Below are positions 3,737-43,256 of a stretch of 64,000 nucleotides of DNA, piece after piece; positions within the stretch are counted from its first letter, which is position 1, and every line of letters starts with the position of its first letter. The translations under genes and the position numbers were made by a program. The stretch comes from an uncultured Bacilli bacterium (GTDB lineage Bacteria; Bacillota_I; Bacilli_A; RF39; UBA660): positions 121,421 through 185,420 of the forward strand of contig CAKONC010000002.1 of the NCBI GenBank assembly GCA_934096985.1. Direction: 5' to 3'. The notes under the pieces were generated by a model. That model saw only the letters and a list, made by a program, of their open reading frames with translations, made no database searches and was not told the DNA's origin.

Positions 3737-3763
3737 AAAAAAAGAATGGATTATTTTCCATTC
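3737..3763 (-). terminator. Rho-independent terminator of ileS
   Basis: On the minus strand: GAATGGA-aaataa-TCCATTC followed by TTTTTTT. The ileS stop codon lies in the loop. Confidence 0.6.
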
Positions 3764-6700
3764 CTTTCAAGTTTAATGCCAACTTTATAATCATTTAAAG
3801 TTAAATCTTTATCAATTGAATCTACAAAATTAATTTCCGTAGCCAAAGTTTCATTTTTAACATACTCTAAATTATCTTTTATAGACTGAGCAAACTCTTC
3901 ATCAGCATTAACAGTAATCGTTATCCTATTTTCTATATCAAAGTTAAGTTCTTTTCTTATTGCTTGTACTTTTGATACAAATTCTCTAGCATTACCCTCT
4001 TTTTTAAGCTCATCAGTAATAACTGCATTAAGTATAACAAATTTGCCATTATCCATACCAATATCAAAGCCTTCTTTAGCACTATATTTTATATCAATTA
4101 AATCTTTATTAATTGCATAATCATTGCCATTAATATTTAATGAAATTTCTTTATCATTAATTAATAAATCAATATCCTCTTTACTTAACTTTCCTAATAA
4201 TGCTTGGTATTCTTTCATATTTTTGCCAAATACTTTACCTGCTTCTTTGAAATTAGGTTTAATTTCAAAATTCATATAAGTATTTACATCTTGAATATAT
4301 TTTACTTCTTTGACATTTAATTCCTCTTTTATTAAAGAAGTAAGTAAACCAATAATATCTTTATATTTTCCATCAATTAATACCTCTGATAAAGGTTGAC
4401 GTACTTTAATTTTATTTTCTTCACGAACATATCTTCCGATAGAAATTAAATCTCTTACTAAATCCATTTTTTCTTCTAAAGGGTTATCAATTAATTTTTC
4501 ATTGCAAACTGGATACTCTGCTAAATGAACAGAAGTTTCACCTGTTAAGTTTGTATAAATTTCTTCACTTACAAAAGGAGCAATTGGAGCTATTAGTTTG
4601 CATAATCCACTTAAAACTTCGTAAGTTGTTTTGTATACACTTTTTTTAGAATTATCAAGTTTGTTTCCCCAGAATCTATTACGATTACGTCTTATATACC
4701 AGTTAGATAAATCATCTGAAACAAATGATGTAATATATCTTGTAACCTTATTTAAATCATATTCATCGAATGCATTTCTAACATTTTTCACTAAATTATT
4801 ATATTTAGAAAGTAACCATTTATCTATTTCTTCACGTAAAGAATATTCAATTTCACATTCACTAATATTAATATTATCTACATTTGCATACATCTGGAAG
4901 AATGAATAAGTATTTTTTAAAGGATTTACAAATTTTGAATAAACTTCCTTGACACCATCCTCATCGAATTTAAGCGGAGTCCATACTGGAGAAGCATAAA
5001 GCATATACCATCTTATAGAATCAACACCATACTTTTCCATAATGGCTACAGGATCAATAATATTTCCAGTAGATTTACTCATCTTTTTGCCATTTTTATC
5101 AAGCATCATGTCATTTACAACAACATTTTTAAATGAAGACTTTCCACTTATTATTGTGCTTATTACAAGTAGAACGTAAAACCAACCACGAGTTTGATCA
5201 ATACCCTCTGCAATAAAATCTGCTGGGAAATGTTTATCAAACCACTCTTTATTTTCAAAAGGATAATGGCATTGTGCATAAGGCATTGAACCTGAATCAA
5301 ACCAAACATCAGCTACATCACTTACTCTATGCATTGTGCCACCACATGAACACTTCATTGTAATATTATCTACATATGGTCTATGTAAATCTATATCTTC
5401 ATATTTAAGTTCTTGGTCAGCTTTCTCAATTAATTCTTCACGAGAACCAATTACATCAAATTTACCACAATCATCACATACCCAAAATGGAAGTGGACAA
5501 CCCCAGTATCTATTTCTAGAAATTCCCCAGTCTACCATATTATCAAGCCAGTTACCAAATCTTTTTGTACCAACATACTGTGGATACCAATTGATTTTAT
5601 TATTTTCTTCGATTATTTTATCTTTATAATCAGTTGTTTTTACATACCACGCTGGCTTAGCAAAATAAATAAGTGGACTTTTACATCTCCAGCAATGAGG
5701 ATAGTCGTGCTCAATTTTTATTTTTTTAAATAATTTATCATTTTCTTTTAGCCATTTGATAATTGTTATTTCTAAGTCTTTATCAGTAACTAAAGTACCT
5801 TTCCAAGGACCAACTGTATATTTACCCGCAAGGTCTACACTTTGAGTCCAACCAAAGCCATTTTCTTGGCAAACTCTATTATCATCTTCTCCATATGCTG
5901 GTGCAATGTGAACAATACCAGTTCCGTCAGTAGATGTAACATAACTATCTGCAACTACTTCAAATGCTTTACCACCTTCAACAGTTGCAAATGGCATTAA
6001 TTGTTCATATTTAAGTCCTACTAAGTCAGTTCCTTTAAATGTTTCTAAAACTTTATAATCTTCACCTAAAACTTTATCCGCAAGGTCTTTACATAATATA
6101 AATTTATATCCCATAGATTGTGCTTTAATGTATTCATAATCCGGATTAACACATGCAGCAACATTATCAAGAAGTGTCCATGGTGTTGTAGTCCAAACAA
6201 GTAAGTATTCATCTTTATCAACTAATTTAAATGGAACAATTACCGTATTAACTGGATCTAATTGATATCCTTGGTCAACTTCAAACTTAGCAAGTTCTGT
6301 GCCACATCTTGGGCAATATGGAAGTATTTTATTGCTATGGTAAATAGCACCTTTTTTATGCATTTCTTTAAATAAGTACCATTCAGTTTCATGATAATCA
6401 TTTTCACAAGTAATATATGGATGCTCTTCATCAATAAATTGGCCCATCATATCAGTAACTTTTTTTACTTCACTAATATTTAAAGCTGTATTTTTTTTAC
6501 ATTCTTCAATAAACTTTTCAATTCCCATTGCTTCAATGTCTTTTTTGCCATTAATGCCTAATTTCTTTTCAACATTATACTCAATAGGAAGTCCGTTACA
6601 ATCAAGTCCAATTTTTCTATCAACTCTATATCCGTTCATAACATTATACTTACAAAAAGCATCTTTAATTGTTTTAGCAAATACATGATGAATTCCAGGT

Positions 6701-6846
6701 TTAGCATTAGCATATATTGGTCCATCATAAAATACAAAGTTCTTATCTCCCTTAGTAGTAAGAGATAAAATATCTTCTTTTTGCCAAGTATCTAATATAC
6801 TTTTTTCTACTTCATTAGTACTTCTTTCATCTAACTTTTTAAACAT
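3751..6846 (-). CDS. ileS: Isoleucine--tRNA ligase (long, type 2-like form)
   Basis: HIGH-type (PGIHHV) and KMSKS motifs, plus a CP1 editing domain. The ATG at 6846 follows GGAGGGAAG. The 20 extra codons in the track ORF run into the T-box terminator. Confidence 0.95.
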   Translation of the reverse strand: MFKKLDERSTNEVEKSILDTWQKEDILSLTTKGDKNFVFYDGPIYANAKPGIHHVFAKTIKDAFCKYNVMNGYRVDRKIGLDCNGLPIEYNVEKKLGINGKKDIEAMGIEKFIEECKKNTALNISEVKKVTDMMGQFIDEEHPYITCENDYHETEWYLFKEMHKKGAIYHSNKILPYCPRCGTELAKFEVDQGYQLDPVNTVIVPFKLVDKDEYLLVWTTTPWTLLDNVAACVNPDYEYIKAQSMGYKFILCKDLADKVLGEDYKVLETFKGTDLVGLKYEQLMPFATVEGGKAFEVVADSYVTSTDGTGIVHIAPAYGEDDNRVCQENGFGWTQSVDLAGKYTVGPWKGTLVTDKDLEITIIKWLKENDKLFKKIKIEHDYPHCWRCKSPLIYFAKPAWYVKTTDYKDKIIEENNKINWYPQYVGTKRFGNWLDNMVDWGISRNRYWGCPLPFWVCDDCGKFDVIGSREELIEKADQELKYEDIDLHRPYVDNITMKCSCGGTMHRVSDVADVWFDSGSMPYAQCHYPFENKEWFDKHFPADFIAEGIDQTRGWFYVLLVISTIISGKSSFKNVVVNDMMLDKNGKKMSKSTGNIIDPVAIMEKYGVDSIRWYMLYASPVWTPLKFDEDGVKEVYSKFVNPLKNTYSFFQMYANVDNINISECEIEYSLREEIDKWLLSKYNNLVKNVRNAFDEYDLNKVTRYITSFVSDDLSNWYIRRNRNRFWGNKLDNSKKSVYKTTYEVLSGLCKLIAPIAPFVSEEIYTNLTGETSVHLAEYPVCNEKLIDNPLEEKMDLVRDLISIGRYVREENKIKVRQPLSEVLIDGKYKDIIGLLTSLIKEELNVKEVKYIQDVNTYMNFEIKPNFKEAGKVFGKNMKEYQALLGKLSKEDIDLLINDKEISLNINGNDYAINKDLIDIKYSAKEGFDIGMDNGKFVILNAVITDELKKEGNAREFVSKVQAIRKELNFDIENRITITVNADEEFAQSIKDNLEYVKNETLATEINFVDSIDKDLTLNDYKVGIKLERNGK

Positions 6847-6849
6847 TTT

Positions 6850-7062
6850 TCTTCCCTCCAATAAAAAAAGGTGTGTACCAAAAGGGTGCATATAGCACGG
6901 TACCACCTTTATATTTTACTCAATTATCCTTAATGCGGACTAGACAGTTTATCCTATTTACTTAGATAAACAACTCCCAAGTGATTCAAATTACTTTCTA
7001 TTATTAACTTTCACCAATCGTTAACTCTCTAAAAATATTAAAGTAATTTCGTCTTGTTCATA
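6850..7062 (-). promoter_or_regulatory. T-box leader (Ile specifier) controlling ileS
   Basis: Minus-strand read shows AGAGAG, GATTGGTGAAAG, a candidate specifier in TTGAATCACTTGGGAG (AUC), and the T-box motif AAAGGTGGTACCGTGC. A terminator helix plus TTTTTTT follows just before the SD. Confidence 0.85.
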
Positions 7063-7112
7063 ATTTTTTAAAAATATATCTAAATTATATGACCTTTAAG
7101 TTACATTGTCAA

Positions 7113-32405: not shown

Positions 32406-33311
32406 TTATTGTTTAGTTTTTTCTTCAATATTAGACAACCTATATCCTCCTAAATCATTTGATTCAAAATCAAATATTATTGTAGTATACTCATTTGAAT
32501 TATAATTGTTTTTACAATACGTATATAAGCCTAATATATCAACATCTGTATCTATTTCTTTTAAAAGTTTTGTTTGTTTAAAATTTTTATAATACTTACA
32601 AGAATTATCATCACCCCAAAAATATACATATCCTAATTCTACAGTTGTATTTTGTATCTTTTTAGACATTATTATATTACCTGAATTTAACAAAACAGTC
32701 GGAAATGAACCAGGATTATATATGTTACATTCCTTACTATCACATTTTATAGAATTACCATCAGTAATAATAAAACCATCTAAATCATTTTTTGATATAG
32801 TAATTTTGCTATATCTATTTAATATATTAATAAGTTCAGAAATTGATATATTAAAATTCATATATTTTTTATTTAATTGTCCCTTTGCAACATTCATTTT
32901 TAATAAAACAAATTTAATTAAATTATATAAATAATTTTCATCAGAAATAGACATTCTTAATAATAAATCATATCTATTTAATTTCTGACTATCATTGTTC
33001 CAACCATCATCACCATATACATCAACATTATTTAAATCATCAAAAGAAAATCCGTTAAGTTTATCATCAATTTCATTAATATCACTAACTACCTCAGAAC
33101 GGAAGTAATACTCCCCATTAATCAAAATTTTTTCATCACTATCTATATTTTGAGTATTATTTGCGTTATTTATTTCGTTAGTATTAGTCTTATCATTTTT
33201 GCCAAGTAATGTTTTTCCTAAAATTATTCCTATTGGTATACATAGTACTATACATACTATTGCTGTTATAAATATTATTTTTCCATTATTTGCTTTCTTT
33301 TCATTTTCCAT
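32406..33311 (-). CDS. Membrane-anchored variable-ectodomain protein, paralogue C
   Basis: 301 aa. The N-terminus MENEKKANNGKIIFITAIVCIVLCIPIGIILGKTLLGKNDKTNTN is shared with the two upstream genes, while the C-terminal domain is unrelated to theirs. Confidence 0.6.
   Translation of the reverse strand: MENEKKANNGKIIFITAIVCIVLCIPIGIILGKTLLGKNDKTNTNEINNANNTQNIDSDEKILINGEYYFRSEVVSDINEIDDKLNGFSFDDLNNVDVYGDDGWNNDSQKLNRYDLLLRMSISDENYLYNLIKFVLLKMNVAKGQLNKKYMNFNISISELINILNRYSKITISKNDLDGFIITDGNSIKCDSKECNIYNPGSFPTVLLNSGNIIMSKKIQNTTVELGYVYFWGDDNSCKYYKNFKQTKLLKEIDTDVDILGLYTYCKNNYNSNEYTTIIFDFESNDLGGYRLSNIEEKTKQ
33175..33311. repeat. Conserved 5' cassette of the paralogue array (copy C)
   Basis: About 137 nt, almost identical by eye (a few mismatches) to 34818..34954. 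Confidence 0.7.
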
Positions 33312-33326
33312 ATAATTATTTTCTCC

Positions 33327-34127
33327 CTATTTATTTTCAAATAAAACTCTACTCACAATTTTATATTCTCCATCTTCAAATTCAAAAGTGTATTTAAGTC
33401 TTTCATTTCTACTTACATCATAAGTTATTATATACACATAATTTTCTTCTTTTACGGCATTTTCCACAATATCTTTAAAATATGTTCCACCTTCACAAGC
33501 ATTTGAATTTTTATATAAAATATAAGCATCCATATTTTCTTTATACTCAGCTATTTCACAAGCACCAATATTTAGATACTTACTTGGAATATAAGGAAAA
33601 TCCTTTTTAAAATAATAATAATATTTATCTTTTACATCATCATTTTTTATCATTAAGTTTAAAAAACTATATCCGTTATCAATTAAGTCTTTATTTCCAT
33701 TTTCTAAAGTTTCAATTTTAACTTTTTGAATATTATTTCCATTAATAGCTAAATAATTTGCTAAATTATCAGAATTATTTTCAATTCCCCATGGATCTTT
33801 AAAACTTAAATTACTAGTGGAAGAATTAAAATATAAATCATGGGTATAACTGATGTTTAAAAAAATCATAACAAATTTATTAAAAATTTTATCAACTTCC
33901 TCTTTCGTTGTATTTTCATATTTATTATTTTGAATATTATCAGTTTCATTTTGAGTGTTGCCTATTACATTATCTATTTTATTTGTTAAATTATTTTGCA
34001 TATTTGATACGTTATTACCTTCATTTTTGCCGAGTAATGTTTTTCCTAAAATTATTCCTATTGGTATACAAAGTACTATACATACTATAGAGGTTATAAA
34101 TATTATTTTACCATTATTATTTTTCAC
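33327..34127 (-). CDS. Membrane-anchored variable-ectodomain protein, paralogue B
   Basis: 266 aa with a GTG start behind AAGGAAG. The N-terminus MKNNNGKIIFITSIVCIVLCIPIGIILGKTLLGKNEGNN is followed by a divergent C-terminal domain. Confidence 0.6.
   Translation of the reverse strand: MKNNNGKIIFITSIVCIVLCIPIGIILGKTLLGKNEGNNVSNMQNNLTNKIDNVIGNTQNETDNIQNNKYENTTKEEVDKIFNKFVMIFLNISYTHDLYFNSSTSNLSFKDPWGIENNSDNLANYLAINGNNIQKVKIETLENGNKDLIDNGYSFLNLMIKNDDVKDKYYYYFKKDFPYIPSKYLNIGACEIAEYKENMDAYILYKNSNACEGGTYFKDIVENAVKEENYVYIITYDVSRNERLKYTFEFEDGEYKIVSRVLFENK
34020..34127. repeat. Conserved 5' cassette of the paralogue array (copy B, more diverged)
   Basis: Clearly alignable to the copy A and C cassettes across the TM-coding segment. 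Confidence 0.6.
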
Positions 34128-34156
34128 TTAAATCACTCTTCCTTGTTTTATTAAAT

Positions 34157-34954
34157 TTATTCCGAACAAAAATCATTTACTAAAATGTTTTCATTACTAG
34201 ATTTTTCTTTATTTAATAGATTAATAGAGTATTTATAACCGAATATATCATTAGACATGGATGCATTTGAGCACAATTTATCTTTGTCAACATCATTATC
34301 TAAATTGATTGTTTTTACAAGAATATTTAATTTACTATCTGTAATTGAAATTGAGTTAACTTTTTCATTAAATGCATTTTCATTTGAAATATCATATACA
34401 AGTAGTCCCTTATCTTTAATAAGTGAACTTCCAATAGAAGAAACATTATCATATAAAAATATAATATAATTATCATTATTATAATAATTTAAAACTATGT
34501 TTACTAAACCAATATTTTTTTCATTATATATAACATCCCATGTATAATAACTTTTATTAGACTTTTTAAGTATAACATTACCATCAAGTAATATAGTAAT
34601 ATTATATGATAAATTGTCTGCAATAAAGTATTGAATATCAGAAATACTTTTAGTATCAGATGATATATATATCATTTTATATTTATATCTATCTTCAACA
34701 TCAGGTAAACATGTTTTGTAATTATCTTTTGTACAATTAAGTGTTTCATTCTGTTGTACATCATTTGATACATTTTGAGTATTATTTGCATTATTTATTT
34801 TATTTGCATTATTTATTACATTAGTATTAGTCTTATCATTTTTGCCAAGTAATGTTTTTCCTAAAATTATTCCTATTGGTATACATAGTACTATACATAT
34901 TATTGCTGTTATAAATATTATTTTTCCATTATTTGCTTTCTTTTCATTTTCCAT
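34157..34954 (-). CDS. Membrane-anchored variable-ectodomain protein, paralogue A
   Basis: 265 aa with the same N-terminal 45 aa as paralogue C, an Asn-rich linker, then a unique C-terminal domain. Confidence 0.6.
   Translation of the reverse strand: MENEKKANNGKIIFITAIICIVLCIPIGIILGKTLLGKNDKTNTNVINNANKINNANNTQNVSNDVQQNETLNCTKDNYKTCLPDVEDRYKYKMIYISSDTKSISDIQYFIADNLSYNITILLDGNVILKKSNKSYYTWDVIYNEKNIGLVNIVLNYYNNDNYIIFLYDNVSSIGSSLIKDKGLLVYDISNENAFNEKVNSISITDSKLNILVKTINLDNDVDKDKLCSNASMSNDIFGYKYSINLLNKEKSSNENILVNDFCSE
34818..34954. repeat. Conserved 5' cassette of the paralogue array (copy A)
   Basis: Near-identical to 33175..33311. Confidence 0.7.
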
Positions 34955-35030: not shown

Positions 35031-36641
35031 TTAATAACTTAATTTTCTAAATTCACTTGTACCATTTTTTAAAAGAGTAAACCATAAAATTAAATTTATG
35101 ATTAATAATACAAATAATTCAATTAGAATAACAAAATTAATATTTTTTATAAATGTTATAACTATAAAGACGCTTCCAAAGAAAAGCCCCATACCTGTAA
35201 ACGTACAAATCATTGTACTTGTACTTTGTTTAATAACTTCAGTTTCATTATTCCATTTGAGTTTTGGATATTTCAAATTAATAACAAGTCCATATAATGA
35301 AGAAAAAAGTGGTGCTAAAAATGAAAATAAAATTATATAAACAACATAAATTGATTTAACATTAAAATTTATTAAAAATATTAAATCACACATAAGTATA
35401 ATAGGAGTAGTTAAAACCATATTAAATAATATTTTTGATATAAAAATCTTTTTTTCACTTACTGGATAACTTTTTAAAATATTAAATGTTTTGCCCTCAA
35501 GGGAAATTGATGAACATGTAATTTGAGTCATAAATCCAGTAAATAAAATCATTTCTAGAAAAAATATTGGAGCATACTTGTTAATTAAATATGGTGTAAT
35601 AATAATATCTGAACTTGACTGTAAAATCGAAATAAAACCATTAACATTTGTGCATAGCAATACAGTTAGTATAACCATTAATACCATTCCAAATAATGTA
35701 TTTACAATATATACTGGAATTGAAAAATATGTTTTTAATTCTTTTTTGGTAAGTGATAAAACAGCATTTTTTCTTTTGAAGGATAACTTTTTACTATTCT
35801 TATTAGAGCTTACATTCTTAGATTTAAAAATGATTTTAAAATAATATAATGAACCTAAATAAATAAATATTACAAATGGAAGTATATTTACTAAAATTAA
35901 CTTTATTAAACAGATAAGATCAAACTTATTAATTAGTAATATGTATAAGTTTATTGGATAATATATTTTGGTAATAATGCTATTAATAACATTTGCATTG
36001 CTAACAATATTACTTACCAAATTTTCTATATTAAATGAAAAATAAAATACACCCACAAGTAAAAGCATTGAAATAATTGTTTGAACATTTTTAGAATTTT
36101 TAAAACTTAATGAAATAATTTTTATAATATAACCTATAACTGAAGCTATTATAAGTGGAAGTAATGGCAATAAAATAAGCATTATTAAAGATATTAAATA
36201 AAAATTTATATTAGGATTTTCAAAATAAGCATAAATTATAAATGCAGGTAAAATAAATAAACTATCATACATAAGTTGGAATAAATAAAACTTAAACATT
36301 CTTACAAAAAATACTGTTCTTTTTTCTATAGGCATAGATAAAATTAAATCATTATCCTTACATTCAAAAAGCATTCCTTGTGACTTATAAAATCCTTCAA
36401 TTATTGTATACATAGAAACAAACATAATCATCATGGATAGCATTATATAAGTAAGGCCAATTTTTGAAAGTGGTTTGGCAATTAAATAAGCATATGTACC
36501 TATACCATACATAACTATCAAAAATAGAAAAATAGGAAATAATTTTTTTCTTATATCACTCGTTTTATTGTTTTGTTTTACTTTAAATATATTCATCCCC
36601 TCACTCATTGAGGCTTTGATTAAAGAAATAACTTTTTTCAT
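35031..36641 (-). CDS. Large polytopic ABC-exporter permease-like protein
   Basis: 536 aa with 12 or more TM segments. Its start overlaps the stop of the ABC ATPase gene by 1 nt. Confidence 0.6.
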   Translation of the reverse strand: MKKVISLIKASMSEGMNIFKVKQNNKTSDIRKKLFPIFLFLIVMYGIGTYAYLIAKPLSKIGLTYIMLSMMIMFVSMYTIIEGFYKSQGMLFECKDNDLILSMPIEKRTVFFVRMFKFYLFQLMYDSLFILPAFIIYAYFENPNINFYLISLIMLILLPLLPLIIASVIGYIIKIISLSFKNSKNVQTIISMLLLVGVFYFSFNIENLVSNIVSNANVINSIITKIYYPINLYILLINKFDLICLIKLILVNILPFVIFIYLGSLYYFKIIFKSKNVSSNKNSKKLSFKRKNAVLSLTKKELKTYFSIPVYIVNTLFGMVLMVILTVLLCTNVNGFISILQSSSDIIITPYLINKYAPIFFLEMILFTGFMTQITCSSISLEGKTFNILKSYPVSEKKIFISKILFNMVLTTPIILMCDLIFLINFNVKSIYVVYIILFSFLAPLFSSLYGLVINLKYPKLKWNNETEVIKQSTSTMICTFTGMGLFFGSVFIVITFIKNINFVILIELFVLLIINLILWFTLLKNGTSEFRKLSY

Positions 36642-37348
36642 TATTCACCTAGTTCTAAGAATACTTCTTCGAGTGACTCATCACCTTTAATACTTTTCAT
36701 TGTTCCACACTTAATAAGTTTTCCCTTTTTAATAATAGCAACTTCATCACATAATTTTTCTGCTACATCTAAAATATGTGTTGAATAAAAAACTATAGAA
36801 CCTCTATTTGCCATATCTTTCATTATTTTTTTCATATCAAATACTGCTTTGGGATCAAGTCCAACAAAAGGTTCATCCATTACAAGGACTTTAGGCTCAT
36901 GGCACAGTGCAGAAATAAGTGCAATTTTTTGTTTCATTCCATGAGAAAAAGATGATATTTCATCGTTTAAATTTTTATCCATTTCTAAAAGTGAGGCATA
37001 TTTTAAAATATTCTCTTTTCTTTTTTCATTATTTACTTCATACATATCACAAACAAAATTTATAAAATCTATTGCTTTCATATTTTCATATAAATCAGGA
37101 TTATCTGGTAAATAAGCCATATCCATTTTACATTTAATTGGATTTGTCTTAATATTATTACCATTAATTAATATCTCTCCTTCATCAAAATCAATTATAC
37201 CCATTATCATTTTAATAAGGGTTGTTTTGCCTGCTCCATTATGTCCAATAAAGGCAAAGATTTTTCCATCCGGCACATTAAATGAAATATTGTCTAATGC
37301 TTTATTTTTACCATTATATGATTTACTAACATTTTTAATTTCTATCAT
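36641..37348 (-). CDS. ABC transporter ATP-binding protein
   Basis: Walker A GHNGAGKTT, signature FSHGMKQK, Walker B VLVMDEP. The ATG at 37348 follows GGAGGAC. Confidence 0.9.
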   Translation of the reverse strand: MIEIKNVSKSYNGKNKALDNISFNVPDGKIFAFIGHNGAGKTTLIKMIMGIIDFDEGEILINGNNIKTNPIKCKMDMAYLPDNPDLYENMKAIDFINFVCDMYEVNNEKRKENILKYASLLEMDKNLNDEISSFSHGMKQKIALISALCHEPKVLVMDEPFVGLDPKAVFDMKKIMKDMANRGSIVFYSTHILDVAEKLCDEVAIIKKGKLIKCGTMKSIKGDESLEEVFLELGE

Positions 37349-37417
37349 AAGTCCTCCATACAATTATATTGTATCACGTAATACATTATTTGTATAGATA
37401 AAAAAAAGGAAAGATTA

Positions 37418-37864: not shown

Positions 37865-38050
37865 TTAATTATGGCTTCTACGGCGTGAATTTTTAATATT
37901 TTCTTTCTTTTCATTTCTTCTTTTTACGCCTGGTTTTTCATAGCATTTTCTCTTCTTAAGTTCTGAAGGGACGCCACTACGAGCAAATTTTGCTTTAAAC
38001 TTTTTTAAAGCAAGATCAACATTACCATTTTGAACTACAACCTTTGTCAT
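37865..38050 (-). CDS. rpsU: 30S ribosomal protein S21
   Basis: MTKVVVQNGNVDLALKKFKAKFARSGVPSELKKRKCYEKPGVKRR. GGGAGGGAT lies upstream. The start is the ATG at 38050 or 38053, and the longer track ORF is an over-extension. Confidence 0.9.
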   Translation of the reverse strand: MTKVVVQNGNVDLALKKFKAKFARSGVPSELKKRKCYEKPGVKRRNEKKENIKNSRRRSHN

Positions 38051-38078
38051 CATATCCCTCCCTTCATTAGCTAAACAT

Positions 38079-38107
38079 ATTATAACACCTACCACTTTTT
38101 TTGACAA
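38079..38107 (-). promoter_or_regulatory. Sigma-A-type promoter for rpsU-yqeY
   Basis: On the minus strand: TTGTCA-17 nt-TATAAT, immediately after the stop of the second bacteriocin precursor. Confidence 0.55.
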
Positions 38108-38112
38108 GATTT

Positions 38113-38271
38113 TTAGCAACTAGTATGATTAAATAATCTTCTTAGTGTTGAACCAAAATTTTGTCCATATCCATATACTGCAATAATGATTCTACCTACA
38201 GCGGATAAAAGTGCAGCTGTTACGCCTGCTCCTCCAACATATAAAATGCTTTCATCTTTATTTAACACCAT
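38113..38271 (-). CDS. Double-glycine-leader bacteriocin precursor, peptide B (52 aa)
   Basis: MVLNKDESILYVGG | AGVTAALLSAVGRIIIAVYGYGQNFGSTLRRLFNHTSC. The ATG lies 1 nt after the peptide A stop. The track ORF 38113..38322 is the same frame over-extended across peptide A. Confidence 0.7.
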   Translation of the reverse strand: MVLNKDESILYVGGAGVTAALLSAVGRIIIAVYGYGQNFGSTLRRLFNHTSC

Positions 38272-38272
38272 A

Positions 38273-38422
38273 TTATCTAATATTGCAAGCTTTTGGATTA
38301 GAAAAACCATCAATAATTCCAAAAATAAAAGAACTAATTACAGATACTATAAATAAACCCATGCCAGAAAGTTTTGCACCACCAGTATATTTAATTGCAT
38401 CAGCATCACTTATTTTAGTCAC
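38273..38422 (-). CDS. Double-glycine-leader bacteriocin precursor, peptide A (49 aa, absent from the ORF track)
   Basis: GTG start 7 nt after AAAGGAGG. Product: MTKISDADAIKYTGG | AKLSGMGLFIVSVISSFIFGIIDGFSNPKACNIR. Leader residues at -4/-7/-12/-15 are Y/A/I/M, and the mature part contains a GxxxG (GIIDG). Confidence 0.7.
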   Translation of the reverse strand: MTKISDADAIKYTGGAKLSGMGLFIVSVISSFIFGIIDGFSNPKACNIR

Positions 38423-38437
38423 TTGCTTACCTCCTTT

Positions 38438-38836
38438 CTAGAAAATAAAATCAATAATTTTTTTGATTAATCTTTCTTTTTTATAATAAAATGTTATTTT
38501 TTTTGCTTCATTTTCCATTAAATTCAAATTTGTTTTTATTTTATAGTTTTGATAATTGTTAGCGTCTTTAGTATAAATTTCAGATATTTGTTCTATCTTA
38601 TACTGGTATACATTATTATCTATTTTTATTTTCTTTCCTTTTACAATAATGTCAGAGTTTTTTAAATCAACGGGTATTAAAATACTATTTTTTTGAAATA
38701 CACCATATACGGTAAATGAACTATATACTTTCAAATTAAAACTTAGAAACAATAATATGAGCAATATTCCACTTATGATGAATATTAATAAATAGTTTTT
38801 ATAAGGAATAGTTTTTAACCAAAAATAATTATTCAT
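38438..38836 (-). CDS. Short membrane-anchored accessory protein of the bacteriocin exporter (truncated HlyD/LcnD-like)
   Basis: One TM segment (LLIFIISGILLILLFLSF) followed by a short beta domain. The ATG at 38836 (MNNYFWLK) behind GGAG overlaps the ABC stop by 8 nt. The family assignment is tentative. Confidence 0.55.
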   Translation of the reverse strand: MNNYFWLKTIPYKNYLLIFIISGILLILLFLSFNLKVYSSFTVYGVFQKNSILIPVDLKNSDIIVKGKKIKIDNNVYQYKIEQISEIYTKDANNYQNYKIKTNLNLMENEAKKITFYYKKERLIKKIIDFIF

Positions 38837-40880
38837 AATTTTCTCCAATATTAATAGCTCGTTCAAAAAGATTATCTATTTTTTTATGTGAAACATAAAT
38901 TAATGTTTTATAAGGAAAATTTTTTATTATATTATTTATTATTGTCTTTTCCATAAAATAATCAGTTTCACTTAATGCTTCGTCTAAGACTAAAATTTTA
39001 CTATCTTTCATTAATGCACGAGCCAAAATAATTCTTTGTTTTTCACCACCAGATATATTAATTGAATCATTGCTAATTCCAAAATTATATCTAAATTTTC
39101 TTTTATTAACTATCAAATCTATCAAACATATTTTACATATTTTTTGAAATTTAATTTCATCATTTTGATTTAACATAATATTGTCTTTAATAGTACCAGT
39201 AAAAATTTTTTCTTTTTGACCTACATAAATAATATTGTCTCTAATCGTTCTCAAGCTGTAATCATTTAAACATATGCCATTAATATAAATATTACCTTTT
39301 GTAGGTTCAATACTTCGATTAATAAGTTTACATAAAGTGCTTTTTCCGCAGCCAGAATTACCCTTCACTAAGACTTTTTCATTTTCTTTAATTAATAGAT
39401 TAACATTTTCTAAAACTCGGTTATAATCATTATAAGTAAAACTTACATTTTTTAAATTTATATTTCCTGATAAAAATTTTTGTTTATTGCCAAGAATTTC
39501 TTCTTTTATATCTATAAAATCACATATTTTTTCAAAACTTGCTCGTAAAAAATTATATTTTGGTATTAATGATATGATATTTTTTATTGGTTCAATAAAA
39601 TAAGAAACAAAAGTATTAAACATTACAAGTTCTATCAAAGTAAATTTATTATTATAAATTAAGAAAAATCCAAAAGTATTTATTGCAAACATACTTAATT
39701 CATAAAGCATATTTCGAAAGAAATTTATAAAATTTAAACTGGTAGTAAATGCATAATTATCAAATATTAAATCACATGTTTTACTTTCAATTTTACTCAA
39801 AACATTTCCTATTTCATTTAAATTTTTAATGCTACTTATCATATCTATATTTTCAACTAATAAGCTATTAAAAGTAGTTTGATATTCAATATTTTTCTTT
39901 ATTCTTTGATAAATATAGGAACTTATTAATAAAGAAAATAAGATATAAACAAGCATAAAAACAAATAAAATTAATGTTAATGTTTTATTAATAATAAATA
40001 AAGTAACAAATGAGCCAAAAGAAACTAAAAGGTTTAAAAAGGAAGTAACAAAAAGTTCAGAAAATAAACTTTTAATACTTCCAATTTCACCTACTCTAGT
40101 TATTATCTCTCCTGACGTCCTTGAAGCAATAACATTTAAAGGAAGAGAAAACAGATGATTAAGAAAGTTTTTATATACACTTATATCAATATTTTTATTT
40201 AAGTGATTTTCGTAATAATCTTTCAAATAATTAAACACAATTTTAAAAGTTAAACTAATAAGGAAAAGAAATATAATATACTTTATCAAAGTGGTTGATC
40301 CATTTAAGATCAACTGGTTTAAACTTTTAAAATATAAACCATAAATTATTGTAAAAATCATAAGAAAGAAACTACATAAAAACATATTTAAGCATAGTTT
40401 TTTATTGTCTCTTAAAATATTAAAAAATAACGAATATATATTACTTTCTTTTTCAAGAACGATTATTTTGTCTTTAGGATATAATTCTAATACAACTTCT
40501 GAAAATATGCTTTCGAACTTTTTTTTATCCATTATAATTTTGCCTTTATCTGGATCCATAAATACATAGTCATTTTTTCTAATCTCATATAAGCACATAA
40601 AATGTGCTAATCCATTTTCATAAATAACATGTACAATACAAGGTAAAATAATTTTAGATAAATCATTAATTTTAAGTTTCTTTGCAGATACATCAAAGCC
40701 ATATTTTTCTGCAGCTTTTTGTAAATGATAAACACTAACCCCCTGCAGTGAAGTAAATGTATCCATTCTTATTTTTTCTACAGAAACATATCCATCATAA
40801 TATCTAATTATTGAGGCCAAACAACAAGCACCACAATCCTTTATGTCTTTCTGACGTACAATAACCATTTTTCTTTTCAT
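38829..40880 (-). CDS. Bacteriocin-processing ABC transporter with an N-terminal C39 peptidase domain
   Basis: C39: QKDIKDCGACCLASII (Cys), GLAHFMCLY (His), MDPDKG. Six TM segments. NBD: GNSGCGKSTL, ISGGEKQRIILARA, ILVLDEALS. Confidence 0.9.
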   Translation of the reverse strand: MKRKMVIVRQKDIKDCGACCLASIIRYYDGYVSVEKIRMDTFTSLQGVSVYHLQKAAEKYGFDVSAKKLKINDLSKIILPCIVHVIYENGLAHFMCLYEIRKNDYVFMDPDKGKIIMDKKKFESIFSEVVLELYPKDKIIVLEKESNIYSLFFNILRDNKKLCLNMFLCSFFLMIFTIIYGLYFKSLNQLILNGSTTLIKYIIFLFLISLTFKIVFNYLKDYYENHLNKNIDISVYKNFLNHLFSLPLNVIASRTSGEIITRVGEIGSIKSLFSELFVTSFLNLLVSFGSFVTLFIINKTLTLILFVFMLVYILFSLLISSYIYQRIKKNIEYQTTFNSLLVENIDMISSIKNLNEIGNVLSKIESKTCDLIFDNYAFTTSLNFINFFRNMLYELSMFAINTFGFFLIYNNKFTLIELVMFNTFVSYFIEPIKNIISLIPKYNFLRASFEKICDFIDIKEEILGNKQKFLSGNINLKNVSFTYNDYNRVLENVNLLIKENEKVLVKGNSGCGKSTLCKLINRSIEPTKGNIYINGICLNDYSLRTIRDNIIYVGQKEKIFTGTIKDNIMLNQNDEIKFQKICKICLIDLIVNKRKFRYNFGISNDSINISGGEKQRIILARALMKDSKILVLDEALSETDYFMEKTIINNIIKNFPYKTLIYVSHKKIDNLFERAINIGENYE

Positions 40881-41037
40881 CTATTTTTCCTCCTTTCACC
40901 CTACTTATACCCATTAAAATTAAGTTTTCCTTTTATTTTTGTAAAATTTAATTTATTTTTTTATATTTTTACATTTCGTAACAGTTATATTTTTTATATA
41001 AGGCAATATAATTTACTATAATAAGGAGGAAAAAAGT

Positions 41038-43179: not shown

Positions 43180-43256
<77 letters not shown>

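Follow-up and report, generated by a model that had tools for sequence, protein, structure and literature searches.

In the two-peptide (class IIb) bacteriocins, such as lactococcin G, plantaricin EF/JK and enterocin 1071, coupled and adjacent genes with double-glycine (GG) leaders encode small, cationic, hydrophobic peptides that carry GxxxG motifs, and the same operon provides a dedicated ATP-binding cassette (ABC) exporter with a C39 peptidase domain. Work on lactococcin G and plantaricin EF/JK has given the logic of these systems, namely coupled export, helix pairing through GxxxG and permeabilisation, and their operons normally carry an immunity gene directly after the peptide genes. The same combination of peptide genes and exporter is found in a 64,000-nucleotide stretch of DNA (the window; contig CAKONC010000002.1, positions 121,421 to 185,420, assembly GCA_934096985.1) from an uncultured Bacilli bacterium of the RF39 lineage. 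Here, positions 38113-40880 of the minus strand comprise four tightly packed reading frames, for an ABC exporter, a partner protein and two short peptides, A and B. The G+C content of the window is 25.4%, and the same contig is also present in Hadza human-gut assemblies. We conclude that the locus probably encodes a two-peptide bacteriocin system of class-IIb-like type, located on the chromosome of an uncultured lineage of gut Bacilli.

A four-gene minus-strand operon had been proposed in an initial annotation of this DNA, and all four frames are present with the coordinates, lengths and spacings given there. The exporter gene (38829-40880) encodes 683 residues, with a C39 domain (residues ∼5-137), a transmembrane domain of six helices and a nucleotide-binding domain. 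The partner gene (38438-38836; called an accessory protein in the initial annotation) runs from an ATG at 38836 to a stop at 38438 and encodes a single-pass protein of 132 residues; its start overlaps the exporter stop by 8 nt (ATGAATAA), giving translational coupling to the ABC gene. The peptide A precursor (38273-38422, 49 residues) begins with a GTG located 7 nt downstream of a Shine-Dalgarno sequence, AAAGGAGG, and 15 nt past the TAG of the partner gene. It comprises a 15-residue leader, MTKISDADAIKYTGG (38378-38422), and a 34-residue mature part, AKLSGMGLFIVSVISSFIFGIIDGFSNPKACNIR (38276-38377). The ATG of the peptide B precursor (38113-38271, 52 residues) follows the TAA of peptide A after a single nucleotide and lacks a separate Shine-Dalgarno sequence; here the leader, MVLNKDESILYVGG (38230-38271), has 14 residues and the mature part, AGVTAALLSAVGRIIIAVYGYGQNFGSTLRRLFNHTSC (38116-38229), has 38. 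The description of this locus as unannotated holds for the open reading frame list used at the time, but not for public gene calls, which list a 49-residue gene for A. In public annotation a homologue of A appears as a 'hypothetical protein' in one NCBI metagenome-assembled genome, and B is usually over-extended to 64-65 residues. The 69-residue version of B in the original list was correctly suspected of being an over-extension, since three related loci (L010-L012) have an in-frame stop inside the extension and retain the MVLN... start.

The leaders of both peptides are of the double-glycine type, for which the pattern is Gly-Gly at -2/-1, hydrophobic residues at -4, -7 and -12, an acidic residue near -8 and a length of 14-30 residues. 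Peptide A has Ile at -12, Ser at -11, Asp at -8, Ala at -7 and Tyr at -4 before its Gly-Gly; peptide B has Leu at -12, Glu at -8, Ser at -7 (the one position that is not hydrophobic) and Tyr at -4. The pattern recognised in the initial annotation, with a Gly-Gly end, hydrophobic residues at -4 and -12 and an acidic residue, thus fits in each case. The mature part of A has an isoelectric point of 9.3, a grand average of hydropathy of +0.95 and a net charge of about +2, and the corresponding values for B are 10.1, +0.58 and about +3. The monoisotopic masses calculated for the two are 3600.92 Da (A) and 3996.12 Da (B), and a disulfide-linked pair would have 7595.02 Da. As in class IIb systems, the precursor genes are adjacent in one operon and each mature peptide carries a GxxxG-type motif. 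The spacing had been noted earlier, and an invariant GxxxG does exist in each peptide; in B, however, it is GQNFG and not one of the motifs originally cited.

Related loci (about 45, from gut metagenomes and designated here by L numbers) were gathered from contigs carrying homologues of the peptides and from scans with the ABC protein; a word-indexed search with the partner protein gave near-identical copies only. Word-indexed searches with the peptides gave four homologues of A (67-92% identity) and seven of B (67-98%), and the wider range of identity extends over 26-92% for A and 29-98% for B. Wherever an intact related locus reaches far enough on each side, its genes stand in the order ABC, partner, A-type peptide, B-type peptide, rpsU, yqeY. 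Both small frames are kept in L021/L042 (ABC identity 63%), L026-L045 (58-61%), L049 (52%) and L040 (41%), and also in L025 and L050, where identity in the partner is 39% and 28%, respectively. Among eight alleles of A and nine of B, all insertions and deletions are multiples of three. The Nei-Gojobori ratios of nonsynonymous to synonymous substitution, pooled over non-independent pairs and indicating a direction rather than a precise value, are 0.45 for A (0.39 for its mature part) and 0.22 for B (0.20). The conservation of the two frames, on which the initial annotation had made its proposal depend, is thus borne out both by the bias towards synonymous substitution and by the in-frame character of the indels. 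The stop of A and the start of B are separated by 1 nt in this allele set and in most loci, with a 1-nt overlap in L049 and L050 and an 11-nt gap in L040.

When the most divergent members are compared (26-35% identity), the residues that stay invariant in peptide A are Met1, the Gly-Gly pair, Gly35 and Gly39 of the GxxxG motif, and Cys46. In peptide B they are Met1, Glu at -8, Gly-Gly, Tyr33, Gly36 and Gly40 of the GxxxG motif, and the Cys52 column, this cysteine being the last residue in seven of the eight aligned sequences and the second-to-last in L040. Could the small frames still be spurious, with the exporter and partner serving cargo that is encoded elsewhere? Neither of the window peptides matches a known family, as such an explanation would allow, and by our own estimate from 25% G+C the prior for a chance open frame of 50 codons is about 1%. 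Against this explanation, the frames are under purifying selection over deep divergence, their Gly-Gly is invariant and a Shine-Dalgarno sequence stands ahead of A; it is extremely improbable, and effectively refuted. To judge from these alignments, the small frames are not products of chance, and purifying selection acts on both of them.

The closest described relatives of the exporter are the peptidase-containing ABC transporters (PCATs). Its best matches among proteins of solved structure are the bacteriocin exporter PCAT1 from Clostridium thermocellum (4ry2, E 6e-82) and the streptococcal ComA (E 1e-76), with which it shares a three-domain architecture and the catalytic and ATPase motifs, although overall similarity is moderate. 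Pfam identifies Peptidase_C39 (PF03412, E 2e-34), ABC_membrane (PF00664) and ABC_tran (PF00005). In the alignment with PCAT1, VRQKDIKDCGACC is matched with VRQYDLTDCGAAC (DCGACC/DCGAAC), LAHF with LAHF and DPDKG with DPGKG. The residues Gln10, Cys16, His93 and Asp109 all align with their PCAT1 equivalents and do not vary in a comparison of four homologues with identities of 63-93%, implying that the C39 domain is of the catalytic kind and not degenerate as in HlyB. A degenerate domain had been named in the initial annotation as one of the findings that would count against it, and the motifs read there (the Cys of DCGACC, the His of LAHF, and intact Walker A, signature and Walker B sequences) stand, with the small correction that the catalytic cysteine is residue 16. 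In the same four homologues the ATPase motifs are also invariant: Walker A (Gly507-Ser514, GNSGCGKST), Gln555 of the Q-loop, the signature Ser610-Gln615 (SGGEKQ), Asp633-Glu634 of Walker B (LVLDE) and His665 of the H-loop.

With its catalytic C39 domain, exporter transmembrane domain and nucleotide-binding motifs, the protein has the defining parts of a PCAT. The best-scoring family model is TIGR01193 (bacteriocin_ABC), at 357.2 bits against a cut-off of 523.85; NF045998 (the Mbov_0121-family ABC) reaches 330 bits against a cut-off of 500, and the score for NHLM_micro_ABC1 is also below its cut-off. On these profile scores it is a divergent PCAT and not a member of a named equivalog. A further difference from PCAT1 and ComA lies in its pairing with a partner of 132 residues, and not with an accessory protein of the ComB/LcnD type, the size of which is about 450 residues.

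No Pfam family matches this partner, and a profile of its family compared with PDB sequences and with Pfam gives nothing meaningful. The sole named match is to NF045999, the MAG1140 family, at 21.7 bits against a cut-off of 35. An exhaustive HMMER search shows that the partner family is large: clustering at 50% identity leaves at least 111 clusters, in which the sequences, a few shorter ones excepted, are nearly all 130-140 residues long; 15 of the 97 relatives scanned match NF045999 weakly (best E 5e-7). The mycoplasma Mbov_0121-family ABC and MAG1140 models (NF045998/NF045999) likewise describe a C39-ABC transporter and a family of proteins of about 126 residues, although the window proteins both score below the curated cut-offs. 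A literature search on Mbov_0121 and MAG1140 gave no functional information; one paper that mentions the mycoplasma ABC protein lists it only in a virulence-factor BLAST table.

An AlphaFold2 model of the partner, calculated with the family alignment, has a mean predicted local distance difference test score of 93.7. In it, a short N-terminus leads into a transmembrane helix (residues 15-34), which is followed by a compact β domain and, at the C-terminal end, a further helix. When this model was compared with the PDB by Foldseek, no match was obtained at E<1e-3. Several of the better-ranked weak matches (E 0.06-0.4) are the membrane-fusion β-barrels of MacA, ZneB, Spr0693, AcrA and MexA, with probabilities of 0.9-0.99 and query TM-scores of ∼0.33-0.42 for the first four. 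Adaptors of the HlyD/MacA type share with the partner an N-terminal transmembrane anchor and an extracytoplasmic, β-barrel-like domain, but there is no relation at the level of sequence. Such adaptors also carry a coiled-coil hairpin and lipoyl domains; the model of the partner accommodates only the transmembrane helix, one β domain and the short C-terminal helix, so that these elements are absent from it. Its topology, the coupling of its gene to that of the exporter and the weak resemblance in fold suggest that the partner may be a minimal, membrane-fusion-like export partner. A role as a PedC-like thiol-disulfide oxidoreductase was also considered, and was rejected because the partner has no cysteine.

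By analogy with the class IIb systems, a mechanism can be proposed. One transcript would encode the exporter, its partner and both precursors, and translation of A and B would be coupled through the TAA-N-ATG junction, so that the two should be made in a ratio of roughly 1:1. The leaders would dock in the C39 domain, where Cys16, His93 and Asp109 would cleave after the Gly-Gly, and ATP hydrolysis would drive the 34-residue and 38-residue mature peptides through the membrane, assisted by the partner in a role like that of HlyD or ComB. Outside the cell, A and B would pair helix-to-helix by their GxxxG motifs and permeabilise related bacteria, and a disulfide between the invariant cysteines in their C-terminal regions may hold the two peptides together. 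The class IIb-like interpretation put forward in the initial annotation is supported as far as computation reaches, and killing would be its predicted consequence.

Several observations weigh against it. Unlike the established class IIb systems, the locus has no adjacent, dedicated immunity gene: none was found in or beside the operon in any locus read, in all of which rpsU follows directly after B with no conserved extra open reading frame. The three-component regulatory module is likewise missing, none of the loci having a linked gene for a histidine kinase, a response regulator or an inducer peptide. The peptides of the window have no match at E≤1 to any Pfam or NCBIfam model, bacteriocin hidden Markov models included. 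Bacteriocin loci tend to have a patchy distribution, and a fixed core-genome site such as that beside rpsU, maintained over deep divergence, is uncommon among them. The proposed disulfide is also doubtful, given that the gut is reducing and that peptide B of L040 has two cysteines.

As for the peptide family, the mature sequences had not been recognised earlier as those of any described bacteriocin, and no threshold is reached for PF10439, TIGR03949, lactococcin G alpha/beta, ComC or BlpC. For the double-glycine leader model TIGR01847 (bacteriocin_sig, cut-off 15.7 bits) neither window peptide gives a match at E≤1, and only the A-type peptide of L040 matches, at 9.6 bits. Distant homologues come closer to class IIb models, still below threshold, with 19.6 bits for TIGR03949 (cut-off 21.5) and 20.8 bits for PF10439 (cut-off 27.1), as well as matches to the lactococcin G alpha/beta families. 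A tblastn search of both peptides against 72,556 plasmids gave no relatives and one chance match. As far as sequence comparison can tell, none of the bacteriocin families described so far includes these peptides.

The single invariant cysteine near each C-terminus and the fixed chromosomal site upstream of rpsU are further differences from class IIb, and no inter-peptide disulfide heterodimer was found described among class IIb two-peptide bacteriocins in a literature search. Taken further, such differences could point to a type of two-peptide bacteriocin not described before, in which the two chains are joined covalently by a disulfide between their cysteines, a minimal, membrane-fusion-like partner of ∼130 residues, from a family shared with mycoplasmas, works with the PCAT in place of the ∼450-residue ComB/LcnD protein, and the whole is a core trait beside rpsU without linked immunity. 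We regard this as unlikely.

Could the peptides be exported for some purpose other than killing, as signals or as factors associated with colonisation, fitness or sporulation? Some cargos of PCATs have been described in such terms, among them the pheromones of the competence and Blp systems and, in pneumococci, the rtg GG peptides. Roles for PCAT-exported GG peptides in both communication and competition are described in a published account (PMC7018657). In the loci compared, the operon is always directly upstream of rpsU-yqeY, as a vertically inherited neighbour, in a clade where identity falls to 73% in S21 and to 56% in YqeY. In several lineages it stands back-to-back with SpoIIIAH-like, GerE-like and GerM genes. 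This fixed site and these neighbours, together with the lack of a linked immunity gene or regulator, leave room for an exported peptide that does not kill. On the other side, the mature peptides, at 34-38 residues, are strongly hydrophobic and cationic and contain GxxxG, whereas known pheromones have fewer residues and are detected by a kinase with a linked gene, and no such gene is present here. A toxin of two components would account better than a signal for two coupled peptides that are conserved together, and the SpoIIIAH neighbourhood is absent in L040. A non-toxic function seems to us possible, if somewhat unlikely.

A different question is whether A and B act together at all, or are independent one-peptide bacteriocins (of class IId type) that share an exporter with no obligate synergy. 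An hhalign comparison of the A and B profiles (probability 96.6%) relates the two peptides by their leaders and N-termini, so that they could be paralogues that have diverged and that each act singly. The occurrence in L021/L042 and L050 of a third GG-leader peptide, unrelated to these, would also be consistent with this. It is the arrangement of the locus that argues for joint action: all intact loci have an A-type peptide followed by a B-type one (A being broken in L034 and L036), their start and stop codons are tightly coupled in nearly all loci, and exactly one GxxxG and one cysteine are kept in each peptide. Independent action is accordingly a decidedly unlikely alternative to the two-peptide bacteriocin that we favour. 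The third peptides themselves, both cationic and without cysteine, are at L021:6457-6588 (= L042:1308-1439), with 43 residues (MQVLNDNETVKYVGG/AFYFYLSIVSWFRTLRIKITSRRNYVRF), and at L050:1449-1580, with 43 residues as called (MLNYDELNKIVGG/KAQALSYLLNLIGGYLKRVVMIVELRKGVK). They could be inducer-like, extra bacteriocins or decayed copies of an A-type peptide.

The evolution of the locus adds to this picture. In loci where S21 is 98%, YqeY 81-85% and MtaB 83-87% identical, identity is only 58-64% for the ABC protein and 43-51% for the partner. Species whose C39-ABC proteins share only some 60% identity still have rpsU DNA that is 95-99% identical, which makes the operon a rapidly evolving insert within a highly conserved mtaB...rpsU-yqeY neighbourhood. 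Some alleles are broken: peptide A is frameshifted in L036; in L034 (5573-7202) it is interrupted by foreign DNA encoding an HTH_36 protein and a ParA-like ATPase; and L013, with a 5-codon deletion in the leader of B, is possibly broken, yqeY being fragmented on the same contig. Fast divergence of the exporter and partner, together with broken alleles, is what would be expected of a competition locus. The alleles also look mosaic, and L016 looks recombinant.

The junction of the two peptide genes behaves differently from its surroundings. From about 38240 to 38315, covering the end of A, the 1-nt gap and the leader of B, the DNA forms a near-invariant island between species, with a pairwise identity of ∼0.9 compared with 0.5-0.7 in the flanking sequence. 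Synonymous divergence is 0.115 in the leader of B and 0.53 in its mature part. An RNA structure was rejected as the cause, the predicted fold being no better than that of shuffled sequences (z = -0.03), and the island may be a recombination or gene-conversion junction. The break in L034 falls exactly at its 5' edge, after ...GTATTTGATGGA, and the inserted DNA there is either an integrated mobile element or an assembly chimera.

The intergenic region upstream of the operon (40881-41037, minus strand), which separates it from a divergent SpoIIIAH-like gene, is a putative promoter region. On the minus strand ahead of the ABC gene it contains a conserved sequence, AAAAGGAAAA (40925-40934), a -10-like TATAAG (40904-40909) and a ribosome-binding site, AAAGGAGG (40889-40896). 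An alignment of the upstream regions of seven loci retains AAAGGA(A/G).., (G)TATAA(G/A)TA and GAAAGGAGG, and the pattern as a whole can be written AAAGGA(A/G)..-N16-18-(G)TATAA(G/A)TA-GGTGAAAGGAGG. A scan for consensus sigma-70 sites gave none on the minus strand within 40881-41037. The region has no good -35 TTGACA, a pattern that suggests control through an activator or an alternative sigma factor. A sigma-H or sporulation-sigma assignment is unsupported, the -10 element lacking GAAT (a comparison with the consensus sequences made by eye).

At the other end, rpsU (37865-38053, minus strand; S21, Pfam E 3e-16) begins 59 nt after peptide B. A strong promoter-like site belonging to rpsU, TTGTCA-17-TATAAT with a TG, lies at 38079-38107 on the minus strand; the operon has its downstream limit at this site, which is conserved in L021. 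No terminator-like hairpin was found between peptide B and rpsU.

Downstream of yqeY is a two-gene ABC system, comprising a 12TM_1 (PF09847) permease of 536 residues (35031-36641, minus strand) and an ATPase (36641-37363, minus strand). The pair was considered as an immunity system and rejected: it is absent downstream in L040 and L049 (the L050 contig ends just past yqeY), and the permease is only 64-65% identical between strains whose mature peptides are near-identical. The permease is a hypervariable membrane protein whose variation is independent of the bacteriocin alleles. In L018 and L019, where it shows this 64-65% identity, S21, YqeY, GerE, GerM, MtaB, the C39-ABC and the partner are 90-100% identical, and its own ATPase is 99% identical in L018 and 84% in L019. 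At 32406-34954 (minus strand) there are three tandem paralogues of 265, 266 and 301 residues, which have a near-identical N-terminal membrane anchor (NNGKIIFIT..CIVLCIPIGIILGKTLLGKN) and unrelated, Asn-rich extracellular parts; the precomputed Pfam matches include none for them. Routine features of the window include a T-box leader (6879-7070, minus strand) upstream of an open reading frame of 1051 residues (3751-6906) and a tRNA-Arg(TCT) at 43180-43256 on the plus strand.

In kind, class IIb-like peptides with a PCAT would be a system already known, and what appears from these comparisons to be new is the peptide family, the short partner and the lack of a linked immunity gene. As an in silico prediction in a well-mined field, the result should be of moderate surprise to the specialist. 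With a single invariant cysteine in each chain, the existence of a disulfide-linked heterodimer can be tested directly. For the partner, whose only named relatives are in the uncharacterised mycoplasma MAG1140 family, a role as a minimal PCAT partner would, if true, give a widespread family of proteins of about 130 residues its first functional context. Finally, if the peptides prove to be active, they would represent narrow-spectrum antimicrobials of a new sequence family, from an uncultured, very AT-rich lineage of Bacilli of the human, pig and other guts.

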